Made by a program: the position numbers and the translations under genes | Origin: Candidatus Latescibacterota bacterium | GTDB lineage: Bacteria; Latescibacterota; UBA2968 | Length of the DNA: 64,000 bases | NCBI GenBank assembly: GCA_965204745.1 | Contig: OZ242010.1 | Span: forward strand, 5,248,001 to 5,312,000 | Reading direction: 5' to 3' | In this document: piece by piece, positions 1,215 through 59,550 of the stretch | How the letters are laid out: each line of letters opens with the position of its first letter | Numbering within the stretch: the stretch's first letter is position 1 | Notes under the pieces: generated by a model | Database searches by the model: none | What the model was told of the DNA's origin: nothing | What the model saw: the letters and a program-made list of their open reading frames with translations, nothing else

Positions 1215-1703
1215 GTGTTGTTCTGTGAATCGAAACGCCACCTCGACAAGCCCGATGAAGAATACATGTGTGATTTGGTGACACGCGGCGCAGACTGGGT
1301 GGTGCTGGCCTACGTATCCCGTCGCCCGTGGCAAGTCGCGGGCATCCATCTGCCAGCGGGTTCGCAAACACTGGCGTTTTACCAAACCGGGATCGAGCGC
1401 GTTTTGTGGCGCATGTGTGCCCCTTCAGGTGAACTGAAGGGGCATTTGTTTCATGTATGCCGAGATGTGCGCGTGGGGGAAAACGAGGTGAGCTATCTGG
1501 ACCTGCTCTTGGACATCTGGATCAACGCCGATGGCACTGCCCATGTCTTAGACCGAGACGAGGTCGCCGCCTGTCGCAAAGCGGGCAAATTATCCGCCGC
1601 GGACCTACAAATCATCGCAACAGAAGAAAAACGCATCGCGTCGCACTGGCCCAAATTCGTGCGCGAGTTGGAGGGAAAAATCATTGACTTTCTATTGGCC
1701 TAA
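1215..1703 (+). CDS. DUF402 domain protein
   Basis: YLDLLLDIWINADG..VLDRDEV matches the DUF402 acidic motif. Confidence 0.7.
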   Translation: MLFCESKRHLDKPDEEYMCDLVTRGADWVVLAYVSRRPWQVAGIHLPAGSQTLAFYQTGIERVLWRMCAPSGELKGHLFHVCRDVRVGENEVSYLDLLLDIWINADGTAHVLDRDEVAACRKAGKLSAADLQIIATEEKRIASHWPKFVRELEGKIIDFLLA

Positions 1704-1750
1704 TGTGATGCGATATGCAGATAGCAAATGATCCTTTTGACGTTCTGTAA

Positions 1751-2062
1751 TCATTCAGAGAAGCCATGACAACCATGCCATCGCAAAAGACCATCAAAAA
1801 AGCCATCACGCACAGCGCGCAAGGCTGTCTCGCAACCAACATCCATTATGCAACCAACTTTGCAGGCCGGCGCATGTCGTGCTGTTACAAAAGCGATTTG
1901 CGCTGTGCAAGCCTCTCGGCGTTTGAGAGCGGCATTTTTGAACTGCTGGGGCAGTTGTACCCCGCTCGCCTACTTTTTTTTGTTGTTAAAAAAAAGTAGG
2001 TCGCCGAAGGCATCGGAGGCAACCAACGAGGCTGTAAGGCCAAACGTTTTAGACAAGCACCG
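1751..2062 (+). repeat. About 310-bp dispersed non-coding repeat (MITE/RIME-like), copy 1
   Basis: Highly similar inverted copy at 14096-14403. Contains a TACTTTTTTTT..AAAAAAAAGTA hairpin. Confidence 0.85.
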
Positions 2063-14095: not shown

Positions 14096-14403
14096 CGGTG
14101 CTTGAGCGTTTGGTCCTACAGCCTCGTTGGTTGCCTTTGATGCCTTCGGCGACTTACTTTTTTTCAACAGCAAAAAAAAGTAAGCGAAAAATGCCGCTCT
14201 CAAACGCCGAGGGGCTTGCACAGCGCGAGCGGGGTACAACTGCCCCAGCAGTTCAATCGCTTTTGTAATCGCACGACATGCGCCAGCCTGCAAAGTGGGT
14301 TGCATAATGGATGTTGGTTGCGAAACGGACTTGCGCGCTGTGCGTGATGGCTTTATCGAATGGTCTTTTGCGAGGGCATGGTTGCCATGGCTTCTTTGAA
14401 TGA
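14096..14403 (-). repeat. About 310-bp dispersed repeat, copy 2 (inverted)
   Basis: Reverse complement aligns with 1751-2062. Confidence 0.85.
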
Positions 14404-14462: not shown

Positions 14463-14700
14463 TGGGACCTACCCCCCTGGCCCCCGTTACTCGCTACGCT
14501 TCGTTGTAGGCTACGCCTGTGCCTGTGAGGAAGGGGGGAATGGCGAGAGGTTGTGCGAGGGGTTTGGGTTTCCAGGGCGTGATCTATTCGCTCAAAGCCA
14601 TCAGAACAGCCAGGGAGACAAACCTTCAAAAAGCCATGCGCTCCCCCTTTCCTTGTAGGAAAGGGGGCCGGGGGGATAGGTCCTACGAGGAAGGGGAAGA
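14463..14700. repeat. Composite REP-like element with GACCTACCCCC..CCCCTTCC..GGAAGGGG hairpins in inverted arrangement
   Basis: Same family at 43826-44115, 45740-45810 and 58849-59252. Confidence 0.8.
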
Positions 14701-14800: not shown

Positions 14801-14875
14801 GTAGCAGATCGCATCACATCAGGACAACAGCAATTCACTTTGGTATCATAATTCTACAACCGAAAGGAGTACGCG

Positions 14876-17224
14876 ATGGCCCTGTTCATTCGCATCGGAT
14901 TGATCGCGCTGATCTATCTCGCTCATTTTGGATCGGTCAGAGGCGAAACGTCGATTGACGTGCAGTTTCAAGCGGTTGAGAAAGAGGTTGGTGAGGTGAG
15001 TCACACGGAAAGCATTGAGGCTTTTGAGGTGATTCTTTCACGCGATTCGGATTACGCCCCGGCATACCACGCATTGGCGAATCTGTATCTACAGATCAAT
15101 ACCGTGAATAGCCGACAGCGCGCTATGCAGATGATTCAGAAAGCGATGATGATCGATCCCAACAACGCGGTCTATGGCCTGACACACGGAAAAATTTTAT
15201 GGACGCAAGGCTTTCGATTTCGGGCATTGAACCAATACGAGGAGGTGATCAAAAAACATCCGGAGAATCAGGAAGCTCTCGATGGTGTGGGTATGTATTG
15301 GGTCTATGATTTCCTGGCACAAAAGGACAATCGCCGTAAAAGAACTTTTAAGCAATATGCCCAGCAATCAAAACGAGCAGCAGAGGAGGTGTTGCGAGAA
15401 AGTATGGCTTTGGATGCGATGAATCAGAACCCGTATTATTTGTTGGGCATACTTTACTTTGAAGACGAGGAATGGGAGGCGTTTCACGCCTTGATGCAAG
15501 AACTTTACGCGCACTATCCAAAAGATAAAAATGTGTTGTTGTTTTGTGGTCTGGCTGCATATCAGATCGGCGAATACAACAAGTCGCATGAATTTTATGA
15601 ACGCGCTTATGATTTGATGAGTCTTGAAGAACGCGAGTTGTTGGAATCCATTGATCTGCTCAAGCCCGCAGATGATTCTATCCCGCGCTATGCGCTGACC
15701 GAGTCTGATGAGGGCTTGGCGCGTGACGTATTTTGGAAGAGCCAGGATCCGCTCTATTTGACTGATTTCAACGAAAGAAAGCTGGAACACTTCGGTCGCC
15801 TGGCTTATAGCAATTTGCGGTTTAGGCGATTTTCGGCTGATGTGGAGGGTTGGCAGACGGATATGGGGAAGACCTATATCAAATTCGGAAGATATAAACG
15901 TAGATTTTCAACATATAAAAAAGACTGGGATTCTCGCGAGTCCATGACTACTGCCCTGTTCGAGTTCTGGTATTACGAGAAATTTAAGGTCAAGTTTTGT
16001 GGCAGTACGGATGATATTTGGCATTTTTGCGGTGGTTCTTGGGTCTATGTCAGTCAACGTCTTCCAATCAAAGTCAGTGCCTTCAGAGAACACCGCGAAG
16101 GGCTTGATTTTGCTTTGAGACGAACTTCATTTTCATTTTCCTCTCGTCCCTTTGAAGAAGCCTCGCATCGCACCTTCCGCAAAACAGCACAGCGGTTTGT
16201 CGATCCCTATCTCAACCGAAAATACACCCTGCCCTATCAGGTTGCCGCCTTTGAGGAACGAGACAGTGTGCGCGTGGAACTCAGCTATATGATCCCCAAA
16301 GATCGCCTCAAAGAGAACGCCGAGACAGGGAAAATAAGTTTCTGGGATGGCGTGTTCTTATTCGACGAGCAGTGGCAAGACGTGTATAAACATCGCAAAT
16401 CCGTGACCTTCGCCTTGCCACCGCCCAAGCCAGTGCAAAATGCAGGCGCGAGGCATCGCAACGATCATCTGCTGGTCTCGCGCATGGTGACCGTCCCGCA
16501 GGGGAACTATCTCATGGCCGTGGAATTGTTGGATCAGACATCCGGAGCCATCGGTGTGGCACGCCATCGAGATCGGTTTGTAGCTGACAGCGCGACCTTT
16601 CACTTGAGCGATCTACTGGTCGGCAGTGACATTCGACCGCGACATGCATTCCCAGAAGGCCGGGACGATCTGATCATCACGCCTAATCCGGTTCGCACGT
16701 TTTCGCAGTCCGAATCGATCTTTATCTATCTGGAATTGTACGCCCTTCAACGCAACTTCTTTGGTCGCACGAGTTACGAGATCGCCTACACCATCGGCAA
16801 GCCAGAGGTGGATACGCTATCGCCCACCCTGTTCGCGTCTCAAAGCGTGATTGATACGATAGGCAAAACGCAGATTGATCTGCGTCAGGAATCGGATCAA
16901 CGCCCGCAGCAACTAACGCAGGCGTCGGATGATGAAGGGATTGGCACCGATAGGGATATGTGGGGCGAGACAAAGGTCTATACGAGTGGTGGGCAAGTCC
17001 ATCACGTCGCCGCCGAAAAGCTAAAGGTCAAGCGATCCTCTGATGGCGACCTAACCCGCACCGTGACCGCGAATTACGAAGGGGAGCGCGCGACGGATTT
17101 CACGTATTTGCAGATCGATGTGGCGCAAGTGCCCACAGGGATTTACCAACTGACCATCTCGGCACGGGACAAACACACGGGACAGACCGATGAGAAATAC
17201 ATTTACTTTCGCATTACCGATTAA
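14876..17224 (+). CDS. GWxTD domain protein with N-terminal TPRs, copy 1
   Basis: Signal peptide, TPRs (YAPAYHALANLY) and FWKSQDP..EHFGRLAYS..GWQTDMGKTYIKFG. Confidence 0.88.
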   Translation: MALFIRIGLIALIYLAHFGSVRGETSIDVQFQAVEKEVGEVSHTESIEAFEVILSRDSDYAPAYHALANLYLQINTVNSRQRAMQMIQKAMMIDPNNAVYGLTHGKILWTQGFRFRALNQYEEVIKKHPENQEALDGVGMYWVYDFLAQKDNRRKRTFKQYAQQSKRAAEEVLRESMALDAMNQNPYYLLGILYFEDEEWEAFHALMQELYAHYPKDKNVLLFCGLAAYQIGEYNKSHEFYERAYDLMSLEERELLESIDLLKPADDSIPRYALTESDEGLARDVFWKSQDPLYLTDFNERKLEHFGRLAYSNLRFRRFSADVEGWQTDMGKTYIKFGRYKRRFSTYKKDWDSRESMTTALFEFWYYEKFKVKFCGSTDDIWHFCGGSWVYVSQRLPIKVSAFREHREGLDFALRRTSFSFSSRPFEEASHRTFRKTAQRFVDPYLNRKYTLPYQVAAFEERDSVRVELSYMIPKDRLKENAETGKISFWDGVFLFDEQWQDVYKHRKSVTFALPPPKPVQNAGARHRNDHLLVSRMVTVPQGNYLMAVELLDQTSGAIGVARHRDRFVADSATFHLSDLLVGSDIRPRHAFPEGRDDLIITPNPVRTFSQSESIFIYLELYALQRNFFGRTSYEIAYTIGKPEVDTLSPTLFASQSVIDTIGKTQIDLRQESDQRPQQLTQASDDEGIGTDRDMWGETKVYTSGGQVHHVAAEKLKVKRSSDGDLTRTVTANYEGERATDFTYLQIDVAQVPTGIYQLTISARDKHTGQTDEKYIYFRITD

Positions 17225-17298
17225 ATGACCATTCACTAGCTGGCGGGCGAAGGCCGAATAGCCGAATATCATTATCACACAACCGAAAGGAGTACGCG

Positions 17299-19650
17299 AT
17301 GGCCCTGTTCATTCGCATCGGATTGATCGCGCTGATCTGCCTCTCCTACTTTGGCTCGGTCAGAGGCGAAACGTCGATTGACGTGCAGTTTCAAGCCGCA
17401 GTGGATCAGATCGGCGTGGTGAGTCGTGCGGAAAGCATCAAAGCGTTTCGCGCCATTCTTTCACGCGATTCGGATTACGCCCCTGCATACCACGCATTGG
17501 CGAATCTGTATTTACAGATCAATACCGTGAATAGCCGCCAGCGCGCTATGCGGATGATTCAGCGAGCAATCGCGCTTGACCCCAACAACGCGGTCTATCG
17601 CCTGACGCGCGGAAAAATCTGGTGGACACAGGGGTTTCGATTTCGGGCATTGAACCAATACGAGGACGTGAACCAAAAGCATTCAGAGAATTCGGAAGCC
17701 CTCGATGGTGCGGGTATGTATTGGGTCTATGATTTTTTGGCACTGAAAGATGAACGTCTAAGTTTGAGGGACTATGCCCAAGAAGCCGAACGAAAAGCAG
17801 AGGAGGTGTTGCGAGAAAGTATGGCTTTGGATTCGGCCAACCAAAAACCGTATTATTTGTTGGGCATCCTTTACTTTGAAGACGAGGAATGGGAGGCGTT
17901 TCACGCCTTGATGCAAGACCTTTACGCGCACTATCCAAGGGATAAAAATGTGTTGTTGTTTTGCGGTCTGGCTGAATATCAGATCGGCGAATACAACAAG
18001 TCGCATGAATTTTATGAACGCGCTTATGACTTGATGAGTGCTGAAGAGCGCGAGTTGTTGGAATCCATTGATCTGCTCAAACCCGCAGATGAGGCTATCC
18101 CGCGCTATGCGCTAGCCGCGTCAGATGAGGGCTTGGCGCGTGACGTATTTTGGAAGAGCCAGGATCCGCTCTATTTGACTGATTTCAACGAGAGAAAGCT
18201 GGAACACTTTGGTCGCCTGGCTTATAGCAATTTGCGGTTTAGGCGATTTTCGGCTGATGTAGAGGGCTGGCAGACGGATATGGGGAAGACCTATATCAAA
18301 TTCGGAAGATATAAACGTAGATTTTCAACGTACAAAAAAGACTGGGATTCTCGCGAGTCCATGACTACCGCCCTGTTCGAGTTCTGGTATTACGAGAAAT
18401 TTAAGGTCAAGTTTTGTGGCAGTACGGCTGATATCTGGCATTTTTGCGGTGGTTCTTGGGTCTATGTCAGTCAACGCCTTCCAATCAAAGTCAGTGCCTT
18501 CAGAGAACACCGCGAAGGGCTTGATTTTGCTTTGAGACGAACTTCATTTTCATTTTCCTCTCGTCCCTTTGAAGAAGCCTCGCATCGCACCTTCCGCAAA
18601 ACAGCACAGCGGTTTGTCGATCCCTATCTGAACCGAAAATACACCCTGCCCTATCAGATCGCCGCCTTTGAAGAACGCGACAGTGTGCGCGTGGAACTCA
18701 GCTATATGATCCCCAAAGATCGCCTCAAAGAGAATGCCGAGACAGGCGAAATAAGTTTCTGGGATGGCGTGTTCTTATTCGACGAGCAGTGGCAGGACGT
18801 GTATAAACATCGCAAATCCGTGACCTTCGCCTTGCCATCGCCCAAGCCAGTTCAAAACGCAGGCGCGAGGCATCGCAACGATCATCTGTTGGTCTCGCGC
18901 ATGGTGACCGTCCCGCAGGGGAACTATCTCATGGCGGTAGAACTGTTGGATCAGACATCCGGAGCCATCGGTGTGGCACGCCATCGAGATCGGTTTGTAG
19001 CTGACAGCGCGACCTTTCACTTGAGCGATCTCTTGGTCGGCAGTGACATTCAACCGCGACATGCATTTCCAGAAGGCCGGGACGATCTGATCATCACGCC
19101 TAATCCGGTTCGCACGTTTTCGCAGTCCGAATCGATCTTTATCTATCTGGAATTGTACGCCCTTCAACGCAACTTCTTTGGCCGCACGAGTTACGAGATC
19201 GCCTACACCATCGGCAAGCCGGCGGTGGATACGCTATCGCCCACCCTGTTCGCGTCTCAAAGCGTGATCGATACGATAGGCAAAACGCAGATTGATCTGC
19301 GTCAGGAATCGGATCAACGCCCGCAGCAACTATCGCAGGCGTCGGATGATGAAGGGATTGGCACTGATAGGGATATGTGGGGCGAGACAAAGGTCTATAC
19401 GAGTGGCGGGCAAGTCCATCACGTCGCCGCCGAAAAGCTAAAGGTCAAGCGATCCTCTGATGGCGACCTAACCCGCACCGTGACCGCGAATTACGAAGGG
19501 GAGCGCGCGACGGATTTCACGTATTTGCAGATCGATGTGGCACAAGTGCCCGCGGGGATTTACCAACTGACCGTCTCGGCACGGGACAAACACACGGGAC
19601 AGACCGATGGGAAATACATCTATTTTCGCATTACCGACCCCATTCGCTAA
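17299..19650 (+). CDS. GWxTD domain protein, copy 2
   Basis: Tandem paralog with the same RBS (GAAAGGAG) and the same motifs. Confidence 0.88.
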   Translation: MALFIRIGLIALICLSYFGSVRGETSIDVQFQAAVDQIGVVSRAESIKAFRAILSRDSDYAPAYHALANLYLQINTVNSRQRAMRMIQRAIALDPNNAVYRLTRGKIWWTQGFRFRALNQYEDVNQKHSENSEALDGAGMYWVYDFLALKDERLSLRDYAQEAERKAEEVLRESMALDSANQKPYYLLGILYFEDEEWEAFHALMQDLYAHYPRDKNVLLFCGLAEYQIGEYNKSHEFYERAYDLMSAEERELLESIDLLKPADEAIPRYALAASDEGLARDVFWKSQDPLYLTDFNERKLEHFGRLAYSNLRFRRFSADVEGWQTDMGKTYIKFGRYKRRFSTYKKDWDSRESMTTALFEFWYYEKFKVKFCGSTADIWHFCGGSWVYVSQRLPIKVSAFREHREGLDFALRRTSFSFSSRPFEEASHRTFRKTAQRFVDPYLNRKYTLPYQIAAFEERDSVRVELSYMIPKDRLKENAETGEISFWDGVFLFDEQWQDVYKHRKSVTFALPSPKPVQNAGARHRNDHLLVSRMVTVPQGNYLMAVELLDQTSGAIGVARHRDRFVADSATFHLSDLLVGSDIQPRHAFPEGRDDLIITPNPVRTFSQSESIFIYLELYALQRNFFGRTSYEIAYTIGKPAVDTLSPTLFASQSVIDTIGKTQIDLRQESDQRPQQLSQASDDEGIGTDRDMWGETKVYTSGGQVHHVAAEKLKVKRSSDGDLTRTVTANYEGERATDFTYLQIDVAQVPAGIYQLTVSARDKHTGQTDGKYIYFRITDPIR

Positions 19651-19690
19651 CTTCCGCATATCATTATCACACAACCGAAAGGAGTACGCG

Positions 19691-22039
19691 ATGGCCCTGT
19701 TCATTCGCATCGGATTGATCGCACTGATCTGTCTCGCTCATTTTGGATTGGTCAGAGGCGAAACGTCGATTGACGCGCAGTTTCAAGCCGCAGTGGATCA
19801 GATCGGCGTGGTGAATCGAGAGGAGAGTGTCAAGGCTTTTGAGGTGATTATTTCACGCGATGCAGATTACGCCCCTGCATATCACGCATTGGCGAATCTG
19901 TATTTACAGATCAATACCGTGAATAGCCGACAGCGCGCTATGCAGATGATTCAGAAAGCGATGATGATCGATCCCAACAACGCGGTCTATGGCCTGACAC
20001 ACGGAAAAATTTTATGGACGCAAGGCTTTCGATTTCGGGCATTGAACCAATACGAGGAGGTGATGAAAAAACATCCGGAGAATCAGGAAGCCCTCGATGG
20101 TGTGGGTATGTATTGGGTCTATGATTTCCTGGCACAAAAGGACAATCGCCGAAAAAGAACTTTTAAGCAATATGCCCAGCAATCAAAACGAGCAGCAGAG
20201 GAGGTGTTGCGAGAAAGCATGGCTTTGGATGCGATGAATCAGAATCCGTATTATTTGTTGGGCATCCTTTACTTTGAGGACGAGGAATGGGAGGCGTTTC
20301 ACGCCTTGATGCAAGAACTTTACGCGCACTATCCAAGGGATAAAAATGTGTTGTTGTTTTGCGGTCTAGCTGAATATCAGATCGGCGAATACAACAAGTC
20401 GCATGAATTTTATGAACGTGCTTATGACTTGATGAGTCTTGAAGAACGCGATCTACTCGAATCCATTGATCTGCTCAAGCCCGCAGATGATTCTATCCCG
20501 CGCTATGCGATGACCGAGTCTGATGAGGGCTTGGCGCGTGACGTATTTTGGAAGAGCCAGGATCCGCTCTATTTGACTGATTTCAACGAAAGAAAGCTGG
20601 AACACTTTGGTCGCCTGGCTTATAGCAATTTGCGGTTCAGGCGATTTTCGGCTGATGTGGAGGGCTGGCAGACGGATATGGGGAAGACCTATATCAAATT
20701 CGGAAGATATAAACGTAGATTTTCAACTTATATAAAGTCGTGGAGTTCTCGCGAGTCCATGACTACCGCCCTGATCGAGTTCTGGTATTACGAGAAATTT
20801 AAGGTCAAGTTTTGTGGCAGTACGGCTGATATCTGGAATTTTTGCGGTGGTTCTTGGGTCTATGTCAGTCAACGCCTTCCAAGATCAAAAAGTGCCTTTG
20901 AGGAGCATCGCATAGGGCTTGATTTTGCTTTGAGACGAACTTCATTTTCATTTTCCTCTCGTCCCTTTGAAGAAGCCTCGCATCGCACCTTCCGCAAGAC
21001 AGCACAGCGCTTTGTCGATCCCTATCTCAACCGAAAATACACCCTGCCCTATCAGGTTGCCGCTTTTGAAGAACGCGACAGCGTGCGCGTGGAACTCAGC
21101 TATATGATCCCAAAAGATCGCCTCAAAGAGAACGCCGAGACGGGCGAAATAAGTTTCTGGGATGGCGTGTTCTTATTCGACGAGCAGTGGCAAGATGTGT
21201 ATAAACATCGCAAATCCGTGGCCTTCGCCTTGCCATCGCCCAAGCCAGTTCAAAACGCAGGCGCGAGGCATCGCAACGATCATCTGTTGGTCTCGCGCAT
21301 GGTGACCGTCCCGCAGGGGAACTATCTCATGGCGGTAGAACTGTTGGATCAGACATCCGGAGCCATCGGTGTGGCACGCCATCGAGATCGGTTTGTAGCT
21401 GACAGCGCGACCTTTCACTTGAGCGATCTCTTGGTCGGCAGTGACATTCGACCGCGACATGCATTCCCAGAAGGCCGGGACGATCTGATCATCACGCCTA
21501 ATCCGGTTCGCACGTTTTCGCAGTCCGAATCGATCTTTATCTATTTGGAATTGTACGCCCTTCAACGCAACTTCTTTGGCCGCACGAGTTACGAGATTGC
21601 CTACACCATCGGCAAGCCGGAGGTGGATACGCTATCGCCCACCCTGTTCGCGTCTCAAAGCGTGATCGATACGATAGGCAAAACGCAGATTGATCTGCAT
21701 CAGGAATCGGATCAACGCCCGCAGCAGCTATCGCAGGCGTCGGATGATGAAGGGATTGGCACCGATAGGGATATGTGGGGCGAGACAAAGGTCTATACGA
21801 GTGGTGGGCAAGTCCATCACGTCGCCGCTGAAAAGCTAAAGGTCAAGCGATCCTCTGATGGCGACCTAACCCGCACCGTGACCGCGAATTACGAAGGGGA
21901 GCGCGCGACGGATTTCACGTATTTGCAGATCGATGTGGCACAAGTGCCCGTGGGGATTTACCAACTGACCGTCTCGGCACGGGACAAACAGACGGGACAG
22001 ACCGATGAGAAATACATTTACTTTCGCGTTGTGGAGTAA
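19691..22039 (+). CDS. GWxTD domain protein, copy 3
   Basis: Tandem paralog. Start set at ATG 19691 by homology to copies 1 and 2. Confidence 0.88.
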   Translation: MALFIRIGLIALICLAHFGLVRGETSIDAQFQAAVDQIGVVNREESVKAFEVIISRDADYAPAYHALANLYLQINTVNSRQRAMQMIQKAMMIDPNNAVYGLTHGKILWTQGFRFRALNQYEEVMKKHPENQEALDGVGMYWVYDFLAQKDNRRKRTFKQYAQQSKRAAEEVLRESMALDAMNQNPYYLLGILYFEDEEWEAFHALMQELYAHYPRDKNVLLFCGLAEYQIGEYNKSHEFYERAYDLMSLEERDLLESIDLLKPADDSIPRYAMTESDEGLARDVFWKSQDPLYLTDFNERKLEHFGRLAYSNLRFRRFSADVEGWQTDMGKTYIKFGRYKRRFSTYIKSWSSRESMTTALIEFWYYEKFKVKFCGSTADIWNFCGGSWVYVSQRLPRSKSAFEEHRIGLDFALRRTSFSFSSRPFEEASHRTFRKTAQRFVDPYLNRKYTLPYQVAAFEERDSVRVELSYMIPKDRLKENAETGEISFWDGVFLFDEQWQDVYKHRKSVAFALPSPKPVQNAGARHRNDHLLVSRMVTVPQGNYLMAVELLDQTSGAIGVARHRDRFVADSATFHLSDLLVGSDIRPRHAFPEGRDDLIITPNPVRTFSQSESIFIYLELYALQRNFFGRTSYEIAYTIGKPEVDTLSPTLFASQSVIDTIGKTQIDLHQESDQRPQQLSQASDDEGIGTDRDMWGETKVYTSGGQVHHVAAEKLKVKRSSDGDLTRTVTANYEGERATDFTYLQIDVAQVPVGIYQLTVSARDKQTGQTDEKYIYFRVVE

Positions 22040-28228: not shown

Positions 28229-28878
28229 ACAAAACCCACTTGGCTATTTTTTTTAGCCACCCGTGGTGTAAAATTTTCAACGCAGTATAACTTTTGGAGT
28301 TCACCATGACGACCTATCGCCCTTTTAGCTCCGTTCTTCTGCTCTGCACCCTGCTCGTTGTCTGTGGCGAATCCGCCGCGCAGAATACCGCTTCAAGCGA
28401 TGCGGACCTGAGCGGCCTGACGCTCTCGGCAGGGACGCTGGCTCCGGCCTTTGCCCGCGACTCTCTCGCCTACACCGCGACCGTGGCGAACAGCATCGAC
28501 AGCCTGACCGTTATGCCGACGAGCAACCACAACGGCGCCACGATCACGGTGAACGGCACTTCGGTATCGAGTGGCAGTGCGAGCAGTGCCATCTCCCTCA
28601 GTGTGGGCGAAAACACCATTACCATAGTGGTCACAGCAGAAGATGGGAAGATGACGAAAACCTACACAGTGACCGTTGAGCGCGGCGTGAACATCCCCGA
28701 CGCCAACTTGCGTGCTGTCATTGAGGGCGCACTAGAAAAATTGAGCGGTGCGATCATTACCCCAAGTGAGATGGCGACCCTGACGACCCGCCTTGATGCT
28801 GCGTATCAGAACATTAGTGATTTGACCGGGCTGGAGTATGCAACCCGCCTGGATTCTCTGATTCTTCACCACAACCGC

Positions 28879-29445
28879 ATCTCTGATATCTCGGCCCTGT
28901 CGGGCTTAACCAGCCTGAAAGAGCTGGATCTTTGGAGCAACCGCATCTCTGATATCTCGGCCCTGTCGGGCTTAACCAGCCTGACAGCTCTGAATCTTTG
29001 GAGGAACAGCATCTCTGATATCTCGGCCCTGTCGGGCTTAACCAGCCTGACATTGCTGACTCTTTCCGGCAACCGTATCTCTGATATCTCGGCCCTGTCG
29101 GGCTTAACCAGCCTGAAAGGGCTGGATCTTCAACGCATCAACATCTCTGATATCTCTGCCCTGTCGGGCTTAACCAGCCTGACATTCCTGCGGCTTGAAG
29201 ACAACAGCATCTTTGATATCTCGGCCCTGTCGGGCTTAACCAGCCTGAAATATCTGTATATTAACAACAACCACATCTCTGATATCTCGGCTCTGTCGGG
29301 CTTAACCAGCCTGATAGAGCTGTATCTTCACGACAACCACATCTCTGATATCTCGGCTCTGTCGGGCTTAACCAGCCTGAAATATCTGTATCTTGACAAC
29401 AACCGCATCTCTGATATCTCGGCCCTGTCGGGCTTAACCAGCCTG
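28879..29445 (+). repeat. LRR array 1: 9 copies of a 39-bp constant block at 66-bp period
   Basis: ATCTCTGATATCTC(G/T)GCCCTGTCGGGCTTAACCAGCCTG separated by 27-nt variable segments. Confidence 0.95.
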
Positions 29446-30259
29446 AGCGCTCTGTATATTAAGGGTAATCCCTTGAGCTATCCTTCCTTCATTACCCACA
29501 TCCCGGCTCTAAAGCACCGAGGCGTCAATGTATACTATCATTTTCGACCCCTGGCCAGTTTGGTAAAAATCTCGGGCGATGACCAAACCGGCACGGCTGG
29601 TTCTCGCCTGTCCGATCCGCTCATCGTTGAAGTCCGGGGTGAGAACGACGTTGCCTTTGCCGGGGTGCCGGTCACTTTTTCGGTCACGGCGGGCGGTGGG
29701 TCGCTCAGTACCACAACCGATACAACCGATGCCAATGGTCGCGCCTCGACAAGGTTGACGCTGGGTGCTACGGGCGCAGACACGGTTGTAGCGGCTATCG
29801 ACGTCTCGAACATTGACAAGTCCGTGACCTTCACCACGGCAACAGGTGGGACAGCGGACCTGAAAGGCTTGACACTCTCGGCAGGGACGCTGGTTCCGGC
29901 CTTCGCCCGCGACTCTCTCTCCTACACGGCGACCGTGGCGAACAGCACAACCAGTCTGACCGTCACGCCGACGAGCAATCACAACGGTGCCACGATCACA
30001 GTGAACGGCACTTCGGTATCGAGTGGCAGTGCGAGTAGTGCCATTTCCCTCAGTGTGGGCGAAAACACCATTACCATAGTGGTTGCCGCAGAGGATGGGA
30101 TCACGACGAAAACCTACACAGTGACCGTTGGGCACGGCGTGAACATCCCCGACGCCAACTTGCGTGTTGCCATTGAGGGCGCACTGAAAAAAACGAGCGG
30201 TGCGATCATTACCCCAAGTGAGATGGCGACCCTAACCCACCTTTATGCTAGGGGGATTA

Positions 30260-31077
30260 GGTTCTGTTGACATTTTGTTTTAGAGCGATGAGCGTGGCCG
30301 CAAAAGCGAGAAAGCCTCGATAACTCGTGCTGAGTTTCTCAAAGCGAGCGAATATCCTGCGATACTGCTTCATTTTTCCAATCAACCGCTCAATCAAATT
30401 GCGTTGCTTATACCGATGGCGATCATAATCACGCGGGGTCTTGCGATAAGACCGGGGCGGAATCACGGCAACCTGTCCATGGTGAGAAAGGACGTCCAGA
30501 AACGCTTGTGAATCATAGCCCTTATCCGCGATGACAGATCGGCTCTCATACCCAGCGATTAACGCTTCGGCTTGCGTGATATCGTGGGTTTGTCCCGGTG
30601 TGAGTCGAAACCGGAGCGGGAGGCCACGCGCATCTGTGCAGAGATGGATTTTGGTGCTGAACCCGCCTCGGCTCTTGCCGAGGGCTTGCGCGGCTTGCCC
30701 CCCTTTTTTTTTGAGGCACCCGCTGCACAGGCATGAGCACGCACGACAGTGCTGTCAATGATCAGACATGCCAAGTCTGGATCAGACGTAAAATGCTGGT
30801 GCATGCGTTCCCACACGCCATACCGGCACCAGCGAGCAAAGCGTTTATAGACTGTGTTCCACTTCCCGTACTGTGCGGGCAACTGACGCCACTGACCACC
30901 CGAGCGCATCACCCACAGAACCGCTTCAATGAAGCGTTTGCAACCGGCTTCCTCGCCGACATAGACGCGAGGGCATTCGCGGATGAATGCGAGAATTTTA
31001 GGCCACTGATTCGGAGAAAGAATAAGGTTTGACATACACACAGAGTAACTCAAAATATCCCAAATGTCAACAGAACC
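30260..31077 (-). mobile_element. IS5 family (IS427-like) insertion sequence, 818 bp, two-ORF transposase
   Basis: TIRs GGTTCTGTTGACATTT / AAATGTCAACAGAACC with a TA duplication. orfA from 31035 includes WRQLPAQYGKWNTVYKRF and IIDST. An A9G6 slippery run lies at about 30698-30712. orfB includes YKQRNLIER. Confidence 0.93.
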
Positions 31078-31141
31078 TAGTGATATGACCGGGCTTGAGT
31101 ATGCAATCAGCCTGGATACGCTGAATCTTCGCACCACCAAC

Positions 31142-31531
31142 ATCTCTGATATCTCTGCCCTGTCGGGCTTAACCAGCCTGAAAGTGCTGATTATTAGCGA
31201 CAACGGCAACACCACCCCCCTCTCTGATATCTCTGCCCTGTCGGGCTTAACCAGCCTGAAAAAGCTGATTATTGGCGGCTACAGCAACACCAACATCTCT
31301 GATATCTCTGCCCTGTCGGGCTTAACCAGCCTGACATTTCTGAATCTTGCCGCCAACAACATCTCTGATATCTCTGCCCTGTCGGGCTTAACCAGCCTGA
31401 CATCTCTGGGTCTTCACTACAACCGCATCTCTGATATCTCTGCCCTGTCGGGCTTAACCAGCCTGACAGGTCTGAATCTTTCCTACAACCGCATCTCTGA
31501 TATCTCTGCCCTGTCGGGCTTAACCAGCCTG
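31142..31531 (+). repeat. LRR array 2: 6 constant blocks, variable segments 27-39 nt
   Basis: Same 39-bp block. Two variable segments are lengthened by whole NNC codons. Confidence 0.95.
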
Positions 31532-42142: not shown

Positions 42143-42174
42143 AAGGCACGGTGTACCTGCGATAGCCGTTCAAA

Positions 42175-42312
42175 GGCAAGAGGCAAGACGGAAGAGGCAA
42201 GAGGCAAGACGGGAGAAGGCCACCGCGCTGTTCCTCTCAAGTTGTCAGTTGTCAGTTGTCAGTCCGCCCCGCCCACCCCCTGTTGTAGGGGCGATGCCCC
42301 CGTGCTCGTCCA
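42175..42312. repeat. Heptamer tandem repeats (GGCAAGA, GTTGTCA) plus a GTAG-type REP
   Basis: GTAGGGGCGATGCCCC..TGCTCGTCC at about 42285, with an inverted relative at about 59443-59469. Confidence 0.7.
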
Positions 42313-52000: not shown

Positions 52001-55000
52001 CTTTAGTCTGCCCACCAAACCGCCGGCCCCGTCATGAATCCGCCCTCCGGAGACCTCAGCATTGGCATAGCTGGCCGCGATGACGGTATTATTACCGTTT
52101 GATTCACCCGCTAAACCGCCCACATCGTGACCAGTACCCTCAACGCGACCCGTGACATAACAGCCCAGGATGCGACCACCCACCTGATTACCGACCAACC
52201 CACCCACTTGATTTCTGCCTCTTACATTGACACTTTTCAGCCCCAGACCGGAAATGTTGCCGCTGACACGGCCGAACAGCCCAACATCATCCTGACCACG
52301 GTTGATGTGCAGGTTGGAGATGGTCTTGTTATTGCCCTTGAACGTGGTTGAGTAGGTGCCTCCGATGGGCGACCAGTTGGGGTAGGTGTCGGCAGAGGTG
52401 ACGCTCCCGCTCCCGTCGGTGTCGAAATTTAGGTTGTTGAGCAGTTCGTAGCCGGTGCATGTCCCGGAAGGACAACCCATCCGGACGTTGCTGGTGGTGT
52501 CGCGGTTGGGAAAGGCGGCGTTGTAGTTCGTGATATCACTATCGGCGACGATCCCATCGCCGTTGAGATCCCAGCGGATGGCATGCAGTTGCGCCAGCGT
52601 CTCAATGTCGATGAGGCTATCGCCATCGCTGTCGTAATTGAACCCTTGGGGCGTGCCCATGACCTCGTCCGAGGGCGTGCTATCCATCCCACCTGCCAGG
52701 GTAGCAAGGACGCGCACGGTGTAGGTCGTGCCAAAAGTCAGGTTCTCTATCGTATAGGTCGTGGTGCTCCCTCCAGAGACCGTCTCCTGGCGAGAAGAGG
52801 TGTTGTAGGTCTGTTGTCCGGACTTCCACTGCACCTTGTATCCCGTCGCACCGGTTGCCTCGGTCCAAGCCACAATGAGTTGGACCGGCCCCGGCGTCAC
52901 GCGCACATTGGTGGGTTTGGTTGTCGCCGAGGTCACCATGACTTCCTCCGAGGGGGCACTGTCGGCTAAATTGATATTGGTACTCGTGGCGATGACGCGA
53001 ATCGTGTAGGTCGTCCCTGCGGTCGGCCCAGAAATTTTGTAGGTCGTGGTGCGCCCGTCAGAGATTGTGGCTTGCCCGTGCGTGGCGGCCTGAGAATCGG
53101 AGGTGGGATAAGTCGTTGCCCCGGATTTCCACTGCACCTTATACCCGGTGGCATCGTCCACCACATTCCAAGTCACGGTCAGCGTGTCCACCTTCGCCGC
53201 CACCATCACAGCCGGACTGCCCAGCAAGGCGAGAACGCCGGTCTGCTCTGCCGAGGGTGTGCTATCGGGCGCACCGGTCTTGGTGGCAATGACACGCACT
53301 GTGTAGGTCGTCTCGCCGAGCAAGTTGGGGATCTTGTAGCGCGTCCCCGTGACGATCCCCTGACGCGAGGCGGCGTAGCTCTGATCGCCGGATTTCCACT
53401 GCACCTTGTACCCCGTCGCATAACTCGACGCACGCCAACGCACATCCTAAGGTGTCCACTTTTGGCGTTACGGTCACACTTGTCGGAATGCCCGGCGGTT
53501 GCAAGTTATACTGCACGGTGGTGTCCATGCCGGCATATTTCAACACGGGATATTGATCTGTCTTGCCAAAGGTCCACGGCTCGTCGTTGCCGGGTTGTCC
53601 GTCGAGGTTGGCGTTCCAAGTGGAGAAGATGAGGGTGTAGCCGGTGGGGGATTGGAGCGCGCTGGTCGTCTGGCCGGTAACGCCGCTACCGCCGGCGCTG
53701 GTTGTGCAACCGTTGCTACCGCCGGATGTACAGCCGCTGGTTTGGGTGTCCCAGTAGCTTGCGGTGCCGCCCGTGCCGGAGCCTATCAACCCGCCGACGA
53801 GTGGAGAACTGCCGGTGCCGATAACCGTGCCGATGGAGTAGGAGTTCGTTACGGTGCCGCCTTGGCTTGCTCCCAGCAGTCCGCCGACGTGCTCAGGGCC
53901 GCTGACGGATGCGGTGGAGTAGCTTGAGGTAATCGCGTTGGGCGTCCATCCGACCAGTCCGCCGGCGGTCCTAGTCGTCGCCGAAACGCTGCCGGTGGAG
54001 TAGCAGGCGACGACTGTGCCGCGCAGGGCACCGACCAGAGCGCCGGCATATTCGCCTCCCGCAACACTGGCGTTGGTTATGCCGACGGACTCGATGCGGG
54101 AGGCGGTGTCGGCATTGCCGAATAATCCCACTTCAACGACGGCGGGTCGGTTGATGGTCAGGTTGTCGATAGTGTAGCCGTTGCCCTTGAAATCGCCGGT
54201 GTATCTGGCGGCGTTTGTGCCGATGGGTAGCCAGCCGTCGCCGTTGTTCCAGTAGGTGGCGTCTGCTGAAGTGATTTCGCCGTCGCCATTCTCGTCAAAG
54301 TCGAGGTTGTTGAGCAGTTCGTAGCCGGTGCAGGTCCCGGAAGGGCAACCCATCCGGACGTTGCTGGTGATGTCTCGGTTGGGAAAGGCGGCGTTGTAGG
54401 CGGTCGTATCGCTGGTTGAGGCACTTGCGTCTATGGCACCATCGCCGTTGAGATCCCAGCGGATGGCATGCAGTTGCGCCAGCGTCTCAATGTCGATGAG
54501 GCCATCGCCATCGCCATCGTAATCGATCCCTTGGGGCGTGCCCATGACCTCGTCCGAAGGCGTGCTATCGGTCCCACCTGCCAGGGTAGCAGTGACGCGC
54601 ACCGTGTAGGTCGTGCCAAAAGTCAGGTTCTCTATCGTGTAGGTCGTGGTGCTTCCTCCAGAGACCGTCTCCTGGCGATCAGATGTGTTGTATGCCTGTT
54701 GCCCGGACTTCCACTGTATCTTGTATCCCGTCGCGCCAGTTGCCTCGGTCCAAGCCACAAGGAGTTGGAAATGCCCCGGCGTCACGCGCACATTGGTGGG
54801 CTTGTTTGTCGCCGCAGTTACCATGACTTCCTCCGAAGGGTCACTGTCGGCGATATTGAGATTGGTACTCGTGGCGATGACGCGAATCGTGTAAGTCGTC
54901 CCTGCGGTCACATTGGAGATTTTGTAGGTCGTGGTGCTCCCGCCTGCGATGGTGGCTTGCCCGTGCGTGGCGGCGGACGTCAGATCGGAGGTGGGATAAG

Positions 55001-58000
55001 TCGCTACCCCGGATTTCCACTGCACCCTATACCCGGTTGCGTTGGACACCGCATTCCAAGTCACGGTCAGCGTGTCCACCTTCGCACTCGCCATCACAGG
55101 CGGACTGTCCAGCGTGGACACGATAAAGATGGATTGCTCTGCTGAGGGTGTGCCATCGCGGGCACCGGTCTTGGTGGCAATGACACGCACTGTGTAGGTC
55201 GTCCCAAACGTCAAGTTGGGAATCTTGTGGCGCGTCCCCGTGGTGGTGGCCTCACGCGAGGCGGTATCGTAGCTCTGCGTGCCGGATTTCCACTGCACCT
55301 TGTACCCCGTCGCATAACTCGCCGCAGTCCAACGCACGTCCAAGGTGTCCGCTTTTTGCGTTACTGTCACACTTGTCGGAATGCCCGGCGGTTGCATTGC
55401 AAATTGCGCGGTGGTGTCCATGCCGGCATACTTCAAGACCGGATACTGATCCGTCTTGCCAAAGGTCCACGGATCATCGCCGCCCGGTTGCCTGTCCAGG
55501 TTCAGGTCCCAATTCATTATGTAGATGCCGGTATAACCCGTGGGGCCTTGGAGACCGGCGGTGGTCTGGGGAGCACCGCGTCCGGTGTCGCTACGTTTAG
55601 AGGTGGTACTATCGTAGTAGCTATGGGTAATTGTTGAACTACTGTTGAGACCGACCAGGCCACCAACCTGTGAAGGAGCACTGACCGGGCCGATGGCATA
55701 GCTACCGGTTATCGTGCTGGAATAGAAGTTGGCACCGACCAGGCCACCGGTTCTATAGTTGCCGCTGACTACGCCGGTGGCATAGCTGGCGCGTATGATG
55801 GCCTTCGGGCTACCAAAGTTGCCGTGGAAGCCCACCAGGCCGCCGACGTAAGTAGTGCCGCTGACTGCGCCGGTAGCATAGCTAGCGGTTATCGTGCCGC
55901 GACTCCAGCCCACCAAGCCGCCGATGCTTATATTAGACCCAGTGACGTCCACCTCGGAACGACAGGCGGTAATGGTCGAGCTACCGTGCCGCAGCCAGCC
56001 CACCAAGCCGCCGCTTCGTGCATACCCGCTGACCTGTCCGGTAACGCGGATGTGCATGAGATGGAGCCTGTTGCCTTCGCCAACAAGGACTGCGGTTTCA
56101 GAATTGCCGGTCACATTGGCGTTCACCAGGCTCAAATTGCGGATCGTACCGTCCGCGGCAAAGCCGAACAGCCCGATGTCGTCGGCAGAGCGGTTGATAA
56201 ACAGGTTGGAGATGGTATAGTCGTTGCCGTGGAAGGTGCCGGTGTATTTCGTCGCACTGTTGCCGATGGGCGCCCAGCCTGCGCCGCTGTTCCAGTAGGT
56301 GGCGTCTGCTACGGTGATTTCGTTGTCGTTGTTCTCGTCGAAGTTGAGGTTGTTGAGCAGTTCGTAGCCGGTGCAGGTTCCGGAAGGGCAACCCATCCGG
56401 CCGCTACTGGTGGTAACGCGGTTGGGAAAGGCGGCGTTGTAGTTCATGGTATCATTATCGGCGACGACCCCATCGCCGTTGAGATCCCAGCGGATGGCAT
56501 GCAGTTGCGCCAGCGTCTTAATGTCGATGAGGCCATCGCCATCGCTGTCGTAATTGATCGCGTAGGGCGTGCCCATGACCTCGTCCGAGGGCGTGCTATC
56601 GGTCCCACCTGCCAGGGTAGCAGTGACGCGCACCGTGTAGGTCGTGCCAAAAGTCAGGTTCTCTATCGTGTAGGTCGTGGTGCTTCCTCCAGAGACCGTC
56701 TCCTGGCGATCAGATGTGTTGTAGCTTTGTCCACCGGACCTCCACTGCACCTTGTATCCCGTCGCGCCGGTTGCCTCGGTCCAAGCCACAATGAGTTGGG
56801 CCGGCCCCGGCGTCACGCGCACATTGGTGGGTCTGGTGGTCGCCAAGGTCACCATGACTGCGTCCGAGGGGACACTGTCGGCTAAATTGATATTGGTACT
56901 CGTGGCGATGACGCGAATCGTGTAGGTCGTCCCTGTGGTCAGCCCAGAAATTTTGTGGATCGTGGTGCCCCCGCCAGCGATGGTGGCTTGCCCGTGCGTG
57001 GCGGACTGCTCATCGGAGGTGGGATAAGTCGCTACCCCGGATTTCCACTGTACCTTATACCCGGTTGCGTTGGACACCACATTCCAAGTCACGGTCAGCG
57101 TGTCCACCTTCGCCGCCACCATCACAGCCGGACTGCCCAGCAAGGCGGGAACGCCGGTCTGCTCTGCCGAGGGTGTGCCATCGGGCGCACCGGTCTTGGT
57201 GGCAATGACACGCACTGTGTAGGTCGTCTCGCCGAGCAAGTTGGCGATCTTGTAGCGCGTCCCTGTGACGGTCTCCTCACGCGAGGCGGCGTAGCTCTGA
57301 TCGCCGGATTTCCACTGCACCTTGTACCCTGTCGCATAACTCGCCGCAGTCCAACGCACGTCCAAGGTGTCCGCTTTTGGCGTCACGGTCACACTGGTCG
57401 GCCTGCCCGGCGGTTGCAAGTTATACTGCACGGTGGTGTCCATGCCGGCATATTTCAAGACCGGATACTGATCCGCCGCGCCAAAGGTCCACGGATCATC
57501 GTCGCCGGGTTGTCCGTCGATGTTGGCGTTCCAGGTGGAGAAGATGAGGGTGTAGTCGGTGGGGGATTGGAGCGCGCTGGTCGTCTGGCCGGTAACGCCG
57601 CTACCGCCGGCGCTGGTTGTGCAACCGTTGGTGCCGCCGGATGTACAGCCGCTGGTTTGGGTGTCCCAGTAGCTTGCGGTGCCGCCCGTGCCGGAGCCTA
57701 TCAACCCGCCGATGAGTGGAGAACTGCCGGTGCCGATAACCGTGCCGATGGAGTAGGAGTTCGTTACGGAGCCGCCTTGGCTTGCTCCCAGCAGTCCGCC
57801 GACGTGCTCAGGGCCGCTGACAGATGCGGTGGAGTAGCTTGAGGTAATCGCGTTGGGCGTCCATCCGACCAGTCCACCGGCGACCCTAGTCGTCGCCGAA
57901 ACGTTGCCGGTGGAGTAGCAGGCGACGACTGTGCCGCGCAGGGCGCCGACCAGAGCGCCGGCATATCCGCTTCCTGCAACACTGGCGTTGGTTACGCCGA

Positions 58001-58520
58001 CGGACTCGATGCGGGAGGCGGTGTCAGTGGTGCCGAATAATCCCACTCCAGAGACGGCGGGGCGGTTGATGGTCAGGTTGTCGATAGTGTAGCCGTTGCC
58101 CTTGAAATCGCCGGTGTATCTGGCGGCGTCTGTGCCGATGGGGACCCAGCCGTCGCCGTCGTTCCAGTAGGTGGCGTCTGCTGAGGTGATTTCGCCATCG
58201 CTGTTCTCGTCAAAGTTGAGGTTGTTGAGCAGTTCGTAGCCGGTGCAGGTCCCGGAAGGGCAACCCATCCGGCCGCTACTGGTGGTGACGCGGTTGGGAA
58301 AGGCGGCGTTGTAGGCGGTCGTATCGCTGGTCGTGGCACTTGCGTCTATGGCACCATCGCCGTTGAGATCCCAGCGCATGGCATTGAGCTGGGCGAGGTT
58401 GGCTACATCAATGTAGCCGTCGTTGTTCATGTCGTAGTCGGTTTGGGCAAAAGCCGGCCCCGATGCCACCAGCATGGCCAGCGCGACCAGGGCCAACAAG
58501 TGAGCGTAGCGGGGCATCAT
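46070..58520 (-). CDS. Giant secreted adhesin-like protein: 6 GLUG-type modules, FN3 arrays, Calx-beta x2, dockerin-like tail; +1 frameshift near 53447
   Basis: Signal peptide MMPRYAHLLALVALAMLVASGPAFA, FN3 ATGYKVQWKSG and GGLVG repeats. The two ORFs join after removing one base, giving about 4150 codons. Confidence 0.85.
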
Positions 58521-58536
58521 TTTGTCCCCCTCTCGA

Positions 58537-58553
58537 GGGGGGGGGGGGGGGGG
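58537..58553. repeat. G17 homopolymer (C17 on the coding strand) just upstream of the adhesin RBS
   Basis: Read directly from the sequence. Confidence 0.9.
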
Positions 58554-58848
58554 TACACTGTACTGATCATCGTAACAGGCTGTTTTGCAATAAAATAGAA
58601 CCGCACTCCAAGACGAGGATGGGCGATATGAACGCCACTTTTCGCGGTGGGACAGGCTGGAAAAACATAGCGCCAAATGAGGTTCAAACAGCGGCTGAAA
58701 ATGGCGGTGATCATCTGAAGCCTCCTTTGCAAAGCTGTCGCACAGACCGGGTGCGACTTTTTCTTCGCGTTCAAAATCGCAATGGTGAACGGGAAAAATA
58801 TAGGGAATCGCGCTCTTGTTTGTCAAGCGGTAAAATGACGATGGGAAT

Positions 58849-59252
58849 TGGGACCTACCCCCTGGCCCCCTTCCTAAGAGGAAGGGGGAATGGCGAGAGG
58901 TTGTGCGAGGGATTGTGTGTAAGGGTTTTTGGATTTTCATGGCGTGATCCATTCGCCCAAAGCCATCAAAACAGCCCTGGATGCAAACCTTCAAGAAAGC
59001 CATGCGCTCCCCCTTTCCTTGTAGGAAAGGGGGCCGGGGGGATAGGTCCTGCGATGAAGGGGGAATGGCGAAAGGTTTTGCGAGGGATTGCGCGAGGGGG
59101 GTTTGGGGTTCTATGGCGTGATCCATTCGCCCAAAGCCATCAAAACAGCCCTGGATGCAAACCTTTAAGAAAGCCATGCGCTCCCCCTTTCCGCGTAGGC
59201 ACAGGCGTAGCCTACAATGAGCGAAGCGAATAACGGGGGCCGGGGGGATAGG
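58849..59252. repeat. Tandem composite REP-like elements (two ~180-bp units)
   Basis: ATGGCGTGATCCATTCGCCCAAAGCCATCAAAACAGCCCTGGATGCAAACC occurs twice. Related to 14463-14700. Confidence 0.85.
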
Positions 59253-59550
59253 GCTATGGCGACAGGGCGTGCGAAGGACACAGCGGAGTGGGAACGATGA
59301 AGCGGTGGTGGGGCGGTGGGTGGATCTCGCCTCTTACTTCTTGCCTCTTACTTGGGGATAGGGCTTGCGGTAGGGTGGTGTGGGGTAATCCGCGCAATCT
59401 GCGTAATCCGTTTAATCCGCGATTCAGACACGGCGGGGCGGATGGACAAGCACAGGGCATCGCCCCTACACACACTGCTCGTTTTTTGTGTTTTTGTGCC
59501 TTTGAACTGGCTGTTGCCAGTTGTACCCCGCTCGTGGCTAAACTTCCATC

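Follow-up and report, generated by a model that had tools for sequence, protein, structure and literature searches.

A hairpin unit of 24-35 nt dispersed through the extragenic DNA of Latescibacterota as a probable mini mobile element

A 64,000 nt stretch of Candidatus Latescibacterota contig OZ242010.1 (positions 5,248,001 to 5,312,000; hereafter 'the window') contains two inverted copies of a 310 bp repeat, A and B, whose arms are 90-98% alike. Both carry an identical 27 nt hairpin unit, at two different points, the point occupied in one being vacant in the other, without a target duplication at either (Table 1). The question raised by this locus is whether so short a sequence moves by itself or is only carried and reshuffled by the repeats that host it. 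A preliminary description of this DNA had favoured a very small mobile element that targets T^TCG and preserves reading frames through its length of 27 nt; the small size, dispersal and filled/empty polymorphism of the hairpin are upheld by the analysis reported here, the details of target and frame are not. The most probable reading, to which we attach a probability of about 0.65, is that this hairpin represents a non-autonomous mini mobile element of Latescibacterota, of the same kind as REPs and the small dispersed repeats of cyanobacteria, moved in trans.

The 27 nt sequence, TGAACTGCTGGGGCAGTTGTACCCCGC, has exactly two perfect matches in the window, as the preliminary description had it, and no further matches were found there with up to three mismatches, nor in any of 100 shuffled versions. 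The 29 nt variant described as keeping both the ends and the stem, TGAACTGGCTGTTGCCAGTTGTACCCCGC, was likewise recovered, with TCG directly 3' of it, and the pattern TGAAC-N8-18-GTTGTACC matches the window three times where 0.04 matches are expected. Searching the whole window, with filters off, using a covariance model (R1) built from 46 distinct units of the hairpin family found these same three copies at 44.2-49.4 bits; the next-best match, at 14.4 bits, is the opposite-strand reading of the palindromic stem of copy 3, and all others score 10.1 bits or less. All three copies are intergenic. The identity common to the surroundings of copies 1 and 2 is limited to 32 nt, consisting of T, the 27 nt unit and TCGC. 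Copy 1 has the stem AACTGC/GCAGTT and the loop TGGG, while the stem of copy 3, AACTGGC/GCCAGTT, has one G:C pair more; folded as single-stranded DNA, the 29 nt form (-7.1 kcal/mol, z -4.33) does better than the 27 nt hairpin, whose fold is of modest strength (-5.3 kcal/mol, z -1.2). The flank context of copy 3, TTTGTGCCTT^TCGTGGCTAA, is also filled in OZ251458, by units of 28 and 29 nt, and in OX638329, by one of 35 nt, and is empty at one further locus (L041), which reads GCCTT-TT-GTGGC. Rfam 15 gave no match in the window at gathering score and none at E ≤ 1 between 1500 and 2300, and a tRNA scan found nothing at the units. Matches to CTTGTACCCCGT at 49307, 53405 and 55299 were considered as further units and rejected, being part of a repeated coding domain.

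Table 1. Positions of hairpin units, host repeats and empty sites in the window, and of a 23-mer that splits units in three other genomes (positions there are those of the loci named)
Feature	Position	Strand	Description
Unit copy 1	1939..1967	+	27 nt hairpin (1939-1965) and conserved TC (1966-1967); site 2 of 310 bp repeat copy A; 46.3 bits
Unit copy 2	14227..14255	-	Identical 27 nt (14229-14255) and TC (14228-14227); site 1 of repeat copy B; 44.2 bits
Unit copy 3	59503..59533	+	29 nt variant (59503-59531) and TC; outside the 310 bp repeat; 49.4 bits
310 bp repeat copy A	1701..2060 (about 1751-2046 as the ~300 bp inverted copy)	+	Hosts unit copy 1; multi-copy non-coding repeat of the lineage; no Rfam match
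310 bp repeat copy B	14107..14403	-	Hosts unit copy 2
Empty site 1, copy A	1898..1899	+	AAGCGAT-TT-GCGCTG; usual TT empty state
Empty site 2, copy B	14186..14187	-	GGCATTTT-TC-GCTTAC; unusual TC empty state
23-mer CATGCTCGATTTACTCGCCTTCA splitting units	L023:4990-5060; L073; L077:6150-6240	-; -; +	Three genomes

The neighbourhoods of these copies contain other small structures. A terminator-like hairpin (CTCTCGGCGTTTGAGAG CGGCATTTTT) occupies positions 1913-1939, with site 2 at the end of its T-run, and a perfect A/T-rich palindrome, CCTACTTTTTTTT..AAAAAAAAGTAGG, lies 3' of site 2 at 1970-2000; when a unit is present at this site, an upstream GAGCGG can pair with the CCGCTC tail of the unit. 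Copy 3 is adjoined by 8-9 nt repeats (TAATCCGC-like, 59350-59420), in a spacer (59180-59700) composed almost entirely of small repeats, and short G/A-rich repeats (GGCAAGA, GACGG) occur in inverted orientation 17 kb apart, at 42171-42219 and 59606-59651. Larger repeats are also found in the window. Between 48100 and 58500 there are six tandem units of approximately 1.9-2.2 kb with internal sub-repeats of around 300 nt, in very long minus-strand open reading frames (ORFs), one of which, of 1971 aa, spans 53262..59177. Three arrays of a repeat with a 66 nt period (28743-29570, 31076-31656 and 32366-33060) would correspond to 22 aa if coding, and three direct repeats of about 2.4 kb, 87-95% alike, extend over 14844-20457; as the first of these coincides with an ORF of 782 aa (14876..17224), they are probably tandem paralogous genes.

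The genome-wide motif search that had been proposed was conducted with the pattern TGAACTG-N2-14-CAGTTGTACCCCGC on one genome per species, and returned at least 95 loci. Those listed are all in Latescibacterota metagenome-assembled genomes; at least 13 assemblies contribute 15 contigs, among which are several closed chromosomes, and three chromosomes carry at least 26, 22 and 18 unit loci, respectively. All of these are minimum figures. The loci were picked by an exact pattern, so that the constant parts of the unit look more conserved than they would otherwise. The window represents a different but related species, the best match among the listed loci being OZ251458 (L043 and L070), which is syntenic with it and 81-92% identical across several kb. 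Applying a looser pattern and a stem test to the window and the 95 listed loci (approximately 0.87 Mb) identified 108 distinct units, compared with about one in shuffled DNA. That the unit might be an artefact of assembly or sequencing, or a chance hairpin, deserves practically no credence: the derivation of all sources from metagenomes speaks for it and nothing else does, while the unit recurs in at least 15 contigs of independent assemblies, several of them closed chromosomes, as well as in the window, where zero chance matches are expected. Across the collection, a few chance matches are expected (by hand arithmetic on 21 fixed bases), against at least 95 loci, those listed being all from a single phylum.

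Units share a common anatomy. TG is followed by a stem of 6-8 bp, opening with AACTG and closing with CAGTT around a loop of 3-8 nt, then by a fixed 3' tail, GTACCCCGC, and then by TC. The two commonest lengths are 27 nt (50 of the 108 units) and 35 nt (40 units), the remainder being of 24 nt (two), 26 nt (five), 28 nt (one), 29 nt (nine) and 34 nt (one). The stem comprises 6 bp in the 27 nt form (AACTGC/GCAGTT), 7 bp in the 29 nt form and 8 bp in the 35 nt form (AACTGGCC/GGCCAGTT), and compensatory stem variants are found (GACC/GGTC, GGTC/GACC and AACGG/CCGTT). When the 46 distinct units were aligned, 96.5% of cells were paired and changes on both sides were present in three of eight pairs; the covariation score of 0.202 compares with 0.085 in shuffles, none of 500 of which reached 0.202, and registers slid along the alignment were at most 50% paired. 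By contrast with these fixed parts the loop is free to vary, TGGG, TAAG, TCGG, TGGC, TATC, TTGG and TTTC being among its sequences, and the suggested pairing of GGGG in the loop with the 3' CCCC is not conserved, given such loops as TAAG, TATC, TTTC, TGGC and TCGG. TC lies directly 3' of 97 of the 108 units. Taking one representative per flank context (n = 26, see below), the first base 3' of the unit is T in 23, the second is C in 24 and the third is C or G in 22, and the base immediately 5' is never C. The fixed 3' TC means that the conserved unit really ends ..CCCCGCTC.

Much of the evidence on gain and loss comes from the 310 bp repeat itself. BLAST searches of the window and the 95 loci found it at 61 places, corresponding to 53 distinct copies, from the alignment of which the state of both sites was read; counting by script over 47 of these rows gave the same result. 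Seven of the 53 copies are filled at site 1, namely window copy B, five in OZ251458 (L043, L061, L064, L070 and L080-) and one in OX638329 that has the 35 nt form (L035); this site is empty in 43, of which 42 read TT and one TC. Site 2 is filled in 38, including one with the 35 nt form in OZ220741 (L067), and empty in 12. Both sites are filled in two copies and neither in seven (six clear cases and a truncated copy, L013+9789), so the exchange of position between copies A and B, for which misassembly or internal rearrangement had been named as possible causes, is not peculiar to the window, but recurs across genomes. In the three remaining, fused copies (L014, L053 and L052) a single unit has the left flank of site 1 on one side and the right flank of site 2 on the other; these are the product of recombination between two direct units. 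Across the family, the flanks diverge by 10-15%, and the constant parts of the unit are intact in every unit found in the 53 copies.

A tree of this repeat was constructed from 47 copies with indel columns excluded (rows L013+9789, L067, L014, L053, L052 and L035 being omitted). Window copies A and B are sisters on it (SH-aLRT 89), yet they are unlike at both sites. The empty site 2 of copy B equals the filled site minus exactly 27 nt, with only a 1 nt repeat bounding the stretch removed, and is the sole TC among the 12 empty copies of site 2, making it a candidate excision footprint; the simplest history of copy B is one in which a unit was gained at site 1 and precisely lost at site 2. Unit states are maximally scattered over the tree, with six changes for six filled copies and ten for ten empty ones, but as the tree is poorly resolved, with one well-supported branch, this scatter is not usable as a count of gains or losses. 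At the locus orthologous to copy A in OZ251458 (L043), defined by synteny on both sides, site 1 is filled and followed by TC where the window has TT; the 5' parts of these orthologous copies differ in subtype, such that replacement of the whole repeat is possible.

Such patterns could also arise were the unit a fixed module of a few larger repeats, spread by duplication of its hosts, with no transposition of its own; its presence or absence would then go back to a few ancient events, reshuffled by deletion and by gene conversion between paralogous repeats. Scattering of filled and empty states is what recombination would produce, and the fused copies display unit-unit recombination directly; on the other hand, the exact loss of 27 nt from site 2 of copy B, with its bounding repeat of a single nucleotide, is unlike slippage.

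The same repeat family contains a second polymorphism. A dispersed repeat of around 60 nt with the core GTAGGCACAGGCGTAGCC is present in the window at 14473-14533, 43899-43958, 45743-45802 and 59182-59220, and this core also constitutes a 24 nt presence/absence module of the 310 bp repeat (GTCGCCG[CACGCCGTAGGCACAGGCGTAGCC]AACGCATC versus GTCGCCGAAGGCATC). There is a one-base change beside this insert, as with the hairpin unit.

The diversity of surroundings also bears on the module explanation. On the basis of their flanks, the 108 units from the window and the listed loci, representing at least 13 Latescibacterota genomes, fall into 26 context clusters, and hence the unit is not confined to the 310 bp family; confinement to it was what the preliminary description had named as counting against mobility. 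The 310 bp repeat cluster accounts for 38 of the 108, and 12 lie in arrays of octamers such as TTCGTCTA; among the other contexts are five more families of repeats, a GTAG-type palindrome (GTAGGGGCRGGT..ACCYGCCCCTAC) that has the unit in its loop, and 13 contexts that each occur once (C14-C26). The majority of host contexts being repeats in their own right, many copies may owe their spread to the host instead of to movement of their own. This abundance of repeats, with over a third of all units in one of them, is what a host-borne module would be expected to show, as is the tendency of loop subtypes to track contexts, for instance the TATC loop with CGTGTCG^CCGTGG in OY282377. Nevertheless, that explanation would need a separate origin for each of at least 26 contexts, and has no ready place for the single-copy ones.

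A comparison of filled and empty sites in related genomes, as had been suggested, provided unit-free paralogues: empty-like matches were identified for 65 units in nine context clusters. The usual rule is that an empty site X-TT-Y corresponds to a filled site X-TGAAC..CCCCGC-TC-Y. It is valid at both sites of the 310 bp repeat, as well as in five or more other contexts (AGA-TT-CTTCG, CAAA-TT-ACTCGCG, CGAT-TT-ACTCGCC, GCCTT-TT-GTGGC and TCTA-TT-CGTCTA), and at the loop of the GTAG-type palindrome the joint is similar, not identical, with TTG or TTCT compared with TC. The proposed target T^TCG does not describe these sites, which usually read TT when empty and T..TC when filled, with C or G at the third position; the TC empty site of window copy B is the exception. 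Filling a site thus amounts to the addition of 27 nt together with a change of T to C or, equivalently, to 28 nt in exchange for one T, or 29 nt in exchange for TT, and no contiguous insertion can turn a TT empty site into a filled one. Contiguous insertion fits only three TC empty sites (site 2 of window copy B, site 1 of L080+4815 and one OX638317 copy), no more than expected from random change of T to C, and four units that have TT rather than TC directly 3'. Target-site duplications are absent from the flanks of all 108 units, as they are from copies A and B, in accordance with the preliminary description; the sole fixed flank bases are TC, on one side. A test of whether the target lies in a hairpin loop in minimum free energy folds was positive in two of nine contexts, compared with 319 of 1500 control TT sites.

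This T/C signature may be read in three ways. The element might need an existing ^TC and saturate such sites, leaving as empty the TT sites that are not targets; the C might arrive with the element; or a contiguous 27 nt insertion before TT might be followed by conversion of TT to TC through exchange among units, in which case the four TT-flanked units would be the young ones. The same change from TT to T..TC in at least seven unrelated contexts cannot be the result of hitch-hiking within larger repeats.

There is further evidence that units behave independently of their hosts. In five clusters (C1, C2, C3, C6 and C7), variants of 26/27, 29 and 35 nt occupy an identical position in different genomes, and on occasion in a single genome, which requires repeated insertion or replacement at that point. 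One variant tends to dominate within a genome, such as the 35 nt form in at least five contexts of OX638329. This uniformity would fit gene conversion among the copies of a host-borne module; the difference in length at one point between genomes speaks against such a module. Units also take part in nested structures. They are present inside octamer arrays and in the GTAG-type palindrome loop, and the 23-mer CATGCTCGATTTACTCGCCTTCA splits units between CAGT and TACCCC, both of the 35 nt type (L073) and of the 27 nt type (L077); at a third locus (L023), a complete 35 nt unit lies within this 23-mer, itself within another unit. Such nesting of unit in 23-mer in unit again runs counter to a fixed module passively duplicated with its hosts, which on the evidence as a whole we consider rather unlikely.

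The 23-mer also exists outside any unit, in a TTCTGCG-type array (L026, minus strand). The GTAG-type palindrome, which is canonical-looking, is found at ten places in the window and the 95 loci, some with a unit in the loop, its hosts being OX638329, OZ253501, CBDDPH01, JAJEAX01 and OX638317 (for example L037, L050, L016, L009 and L084). Its presence is a hint of a classical REP/RAYT system, alongside the units, in these genomes.

In relation to genes, units are extragenic. Of 97 units, 38% fall within an ORF of 150 aa or longer, as against 90% of 3000 random positions; the frames were read from stop to stop, and most of the units so covered are in the first 50 or so codons, ahead of the probable start. 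A crude gene caller placed 28 units 'inside' gene calls that are not trusted. The earlier suggestion that 27 nt would preserve reading frames is not borne out, as units are also 24, 26, 28, 29, 34 and 35 nt long and lie outside genes, and no in-frame insertion of nine amino acids is supported, the apparent ORF through copy A being stopped in copy B and in the OY282377 copies. Units are mostly single, with 11 neighbouring pairs within 300 nt among the 108, seven direct and four inverted. Relative to neighbouring genes, 20 have the same orientation and 21 the opposite one, which argues against a role at the level of RNA. The types of spacer follow the background: convergent, divergent and tandem spacers hold 13, 12 and 41 units, respectively, and amount to 26, 29 and 63 kb. 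Taking the lagging strand to be the one indicated by local GC skew, the bias between strands (51 against 34) was not significant (p = 0.08).

It could also be proposed that units are selected cis-elements, whether DNA sites for a host protein or RNA hairpins that stop or stabilise transcripts, and that their mobility is incidental. Several sit between a stop codon and a terminator-like hairpin; the intact constant parts and varying loop of the units in the 53 repeat copies have the signature of a protein-recognised hairpin; and REPs are reported to be binding sites for IHF and gyrase and to have effects on mRNA. Yet there is no preference in orientation with respect to genes or among types of spacer, Rfam gave no match and no T-run follows the hairpin, and a function would leave the arrival of units at new sites unexplained. 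As the primary explanation a cis-acting role is very improbable, but it is compatible with mobility.

The reading we prefer, mobilization in trans, takes the same features as its starting point: a fixed stem base and tail, a free loop and the lack of any orientation relative to transcription give the unit the look of a DNA hairpin recognised by a protein. Hairpin and tail would form the recognition site of a protein encoded elsewhere in the genome, most likely one that cuts and joins single-stranded DNA, of the HUH/Y1 type represented by RAYT or the TnpA of IS200/IS605; such an enzyme is put first because the known users of such hairpin sites are Y1 HUH proteins. Its action would be to cut the unit out and reinsert it at TT dinucleotides in T-rich DNA outside genes. 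Either the C that follows the unit would enter with it, the true unit ending ..CCCCGCTC and taking the place of TT, or the target would need to have this C already. As no contiguous insertion converts TT to the filled state, a simple IS608-like cut-and-paste would be unfit unless the target needs an existing C.

Candidates for the enzyme were sought among ORFs of the window and 95 loci (approximately 0.87 Mb, or 1-5% of each genome) that passed a pre-filter for an HxH motif and a later tyrosine. None of the 206 HxH-containing ORFs in this small part of each genome matched the Pfam family Y1_Tnp, and neither a RAYT, which the preliminary description had named as a candidate to look for and which in REP systems is flanked by the repeats (a REPtron), nor TnpA or TnpB was found in the same sequence. 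Other Pfam matches encountered in this search were to an IS3-type DDE integrase (rve), a Cas10/Cmr2 palm fragment and DprA, at L055:8345-9280, L026:8977-10035 and L001:7932-9155.

A more speculative reading, which we hold to be quite unlikely, takes the units as a family of ultra-small elements (26-35 nt) that, along with two or more other mini-modules (the 23-mer and the 24 nt module), moves otherwise than by classical Y1 cut-and-paste. TT would be replaced by unit plus TC through short-patch replacement or a templated one-base edit, carried out by an enzyme new to transposition, and the outcome would be layered, nested intergenic mosaics.

It is not yet settled how the smallest bacterial repeats, such as REPs and small dispersed repeats, reach new sites, and the present family offers unusually clean material, with numerous closed chromosomes from related species and precise filled/empty pairs in more than seven contexts. 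Stem-length variants mark independent events, nesting orders events in time, and the constant one-base signature at the joint constrains the chemistry by which the unit moves. The layering of several mini-modules in the intergenic DNA of this uncultured phylum also matters for annotation and assembly.

In its working, the unit most resembles REPs and cyanobacterial small dispersed repeats. REPs are defined by a GTAG or GTGG tetranucleotide 0-2 nt 5' of the foot of a hairpin, and the prevailing view is that a single-copy enzyme, RAYT (TnpA-REP), moves both these and REPINs in trans. RAYT and the TnpA of IS200/IS605 are Y1 HUH enzymes, the cleavage of which is guided by four bases at the hairpin foot, as in Escherichia coli, where GTAG directs cutting at CT. 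The likeness extends to short extragenic hairpins in many copies (REPs of 21-65 nt, compared with 24-35 nt for the unit), fixed bases at the foot of the stem with a free loop, restriction to a lineage, variant families in one genome and mosaics with other small motifs, as in BIMEs. By contrast, the foot of the unit is GTAC on the complementary strand (..GGGGTAC|AACTG..) and NNTG on the given strand, rather than GT[AG]G, and it has a long fixed tail (GTACCCCGC followed by TC), on one side only. Being mostly single, with four of 11 pairs inverted, units are not the inverted doublets that characterise REPINs, and in this they also differ from BIMEs. Nor is the change of site from TT to T..TC known to be reported for REPs. 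A search of the main texts of one literature collection for the unit motif returned one unrelated match and no paper carrying it, and in a second, for Latescibacter- together with RAYT, REPIN or REP, none of the matches listed contained the Latescibacter- term.

IS200/IS605 elements resemble the unit in combining a hairpin with adjacent fixed bases, in inserting without duplication and in their single-strand logic; the unit differs in being one hairpin, without left and right ends, and in its TT empty sites, which are unlike an unchanged target. MITEs, such as Correia elements and Nezha, are similarly non-autonomous, multi-copy and intergenic; the unit is 3-10 times smaller and has neither terminal inverted repeats nor target-site duplications. 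It differs from CRISPR repeats in being dispersed and mostly single, rather than forming regularly spaced arrays.

In Nostoc and other cyanobacteria, the small dispersed repeats SDR4-6 are reportedly hairpin units of 21-27 nt, said to insert precisely, without target duplication, and often inside other repeats; we know of no enzyme that moves them. The unit shares with them its hairpin, its precise presence or absence, the lack of target duplication and nesting. It belongs to another phylum and appears to differ in sequence, such that common descent is not implied, and is distinct in reaching lengths of 35 nt, in its stem-length variants and in the constant change of an adjacent base. What sets the unit apart among systems of this kind is the signature at its joint, the occurrence of stem-length variants at identical sites and its layered nesting with other mini-modules.
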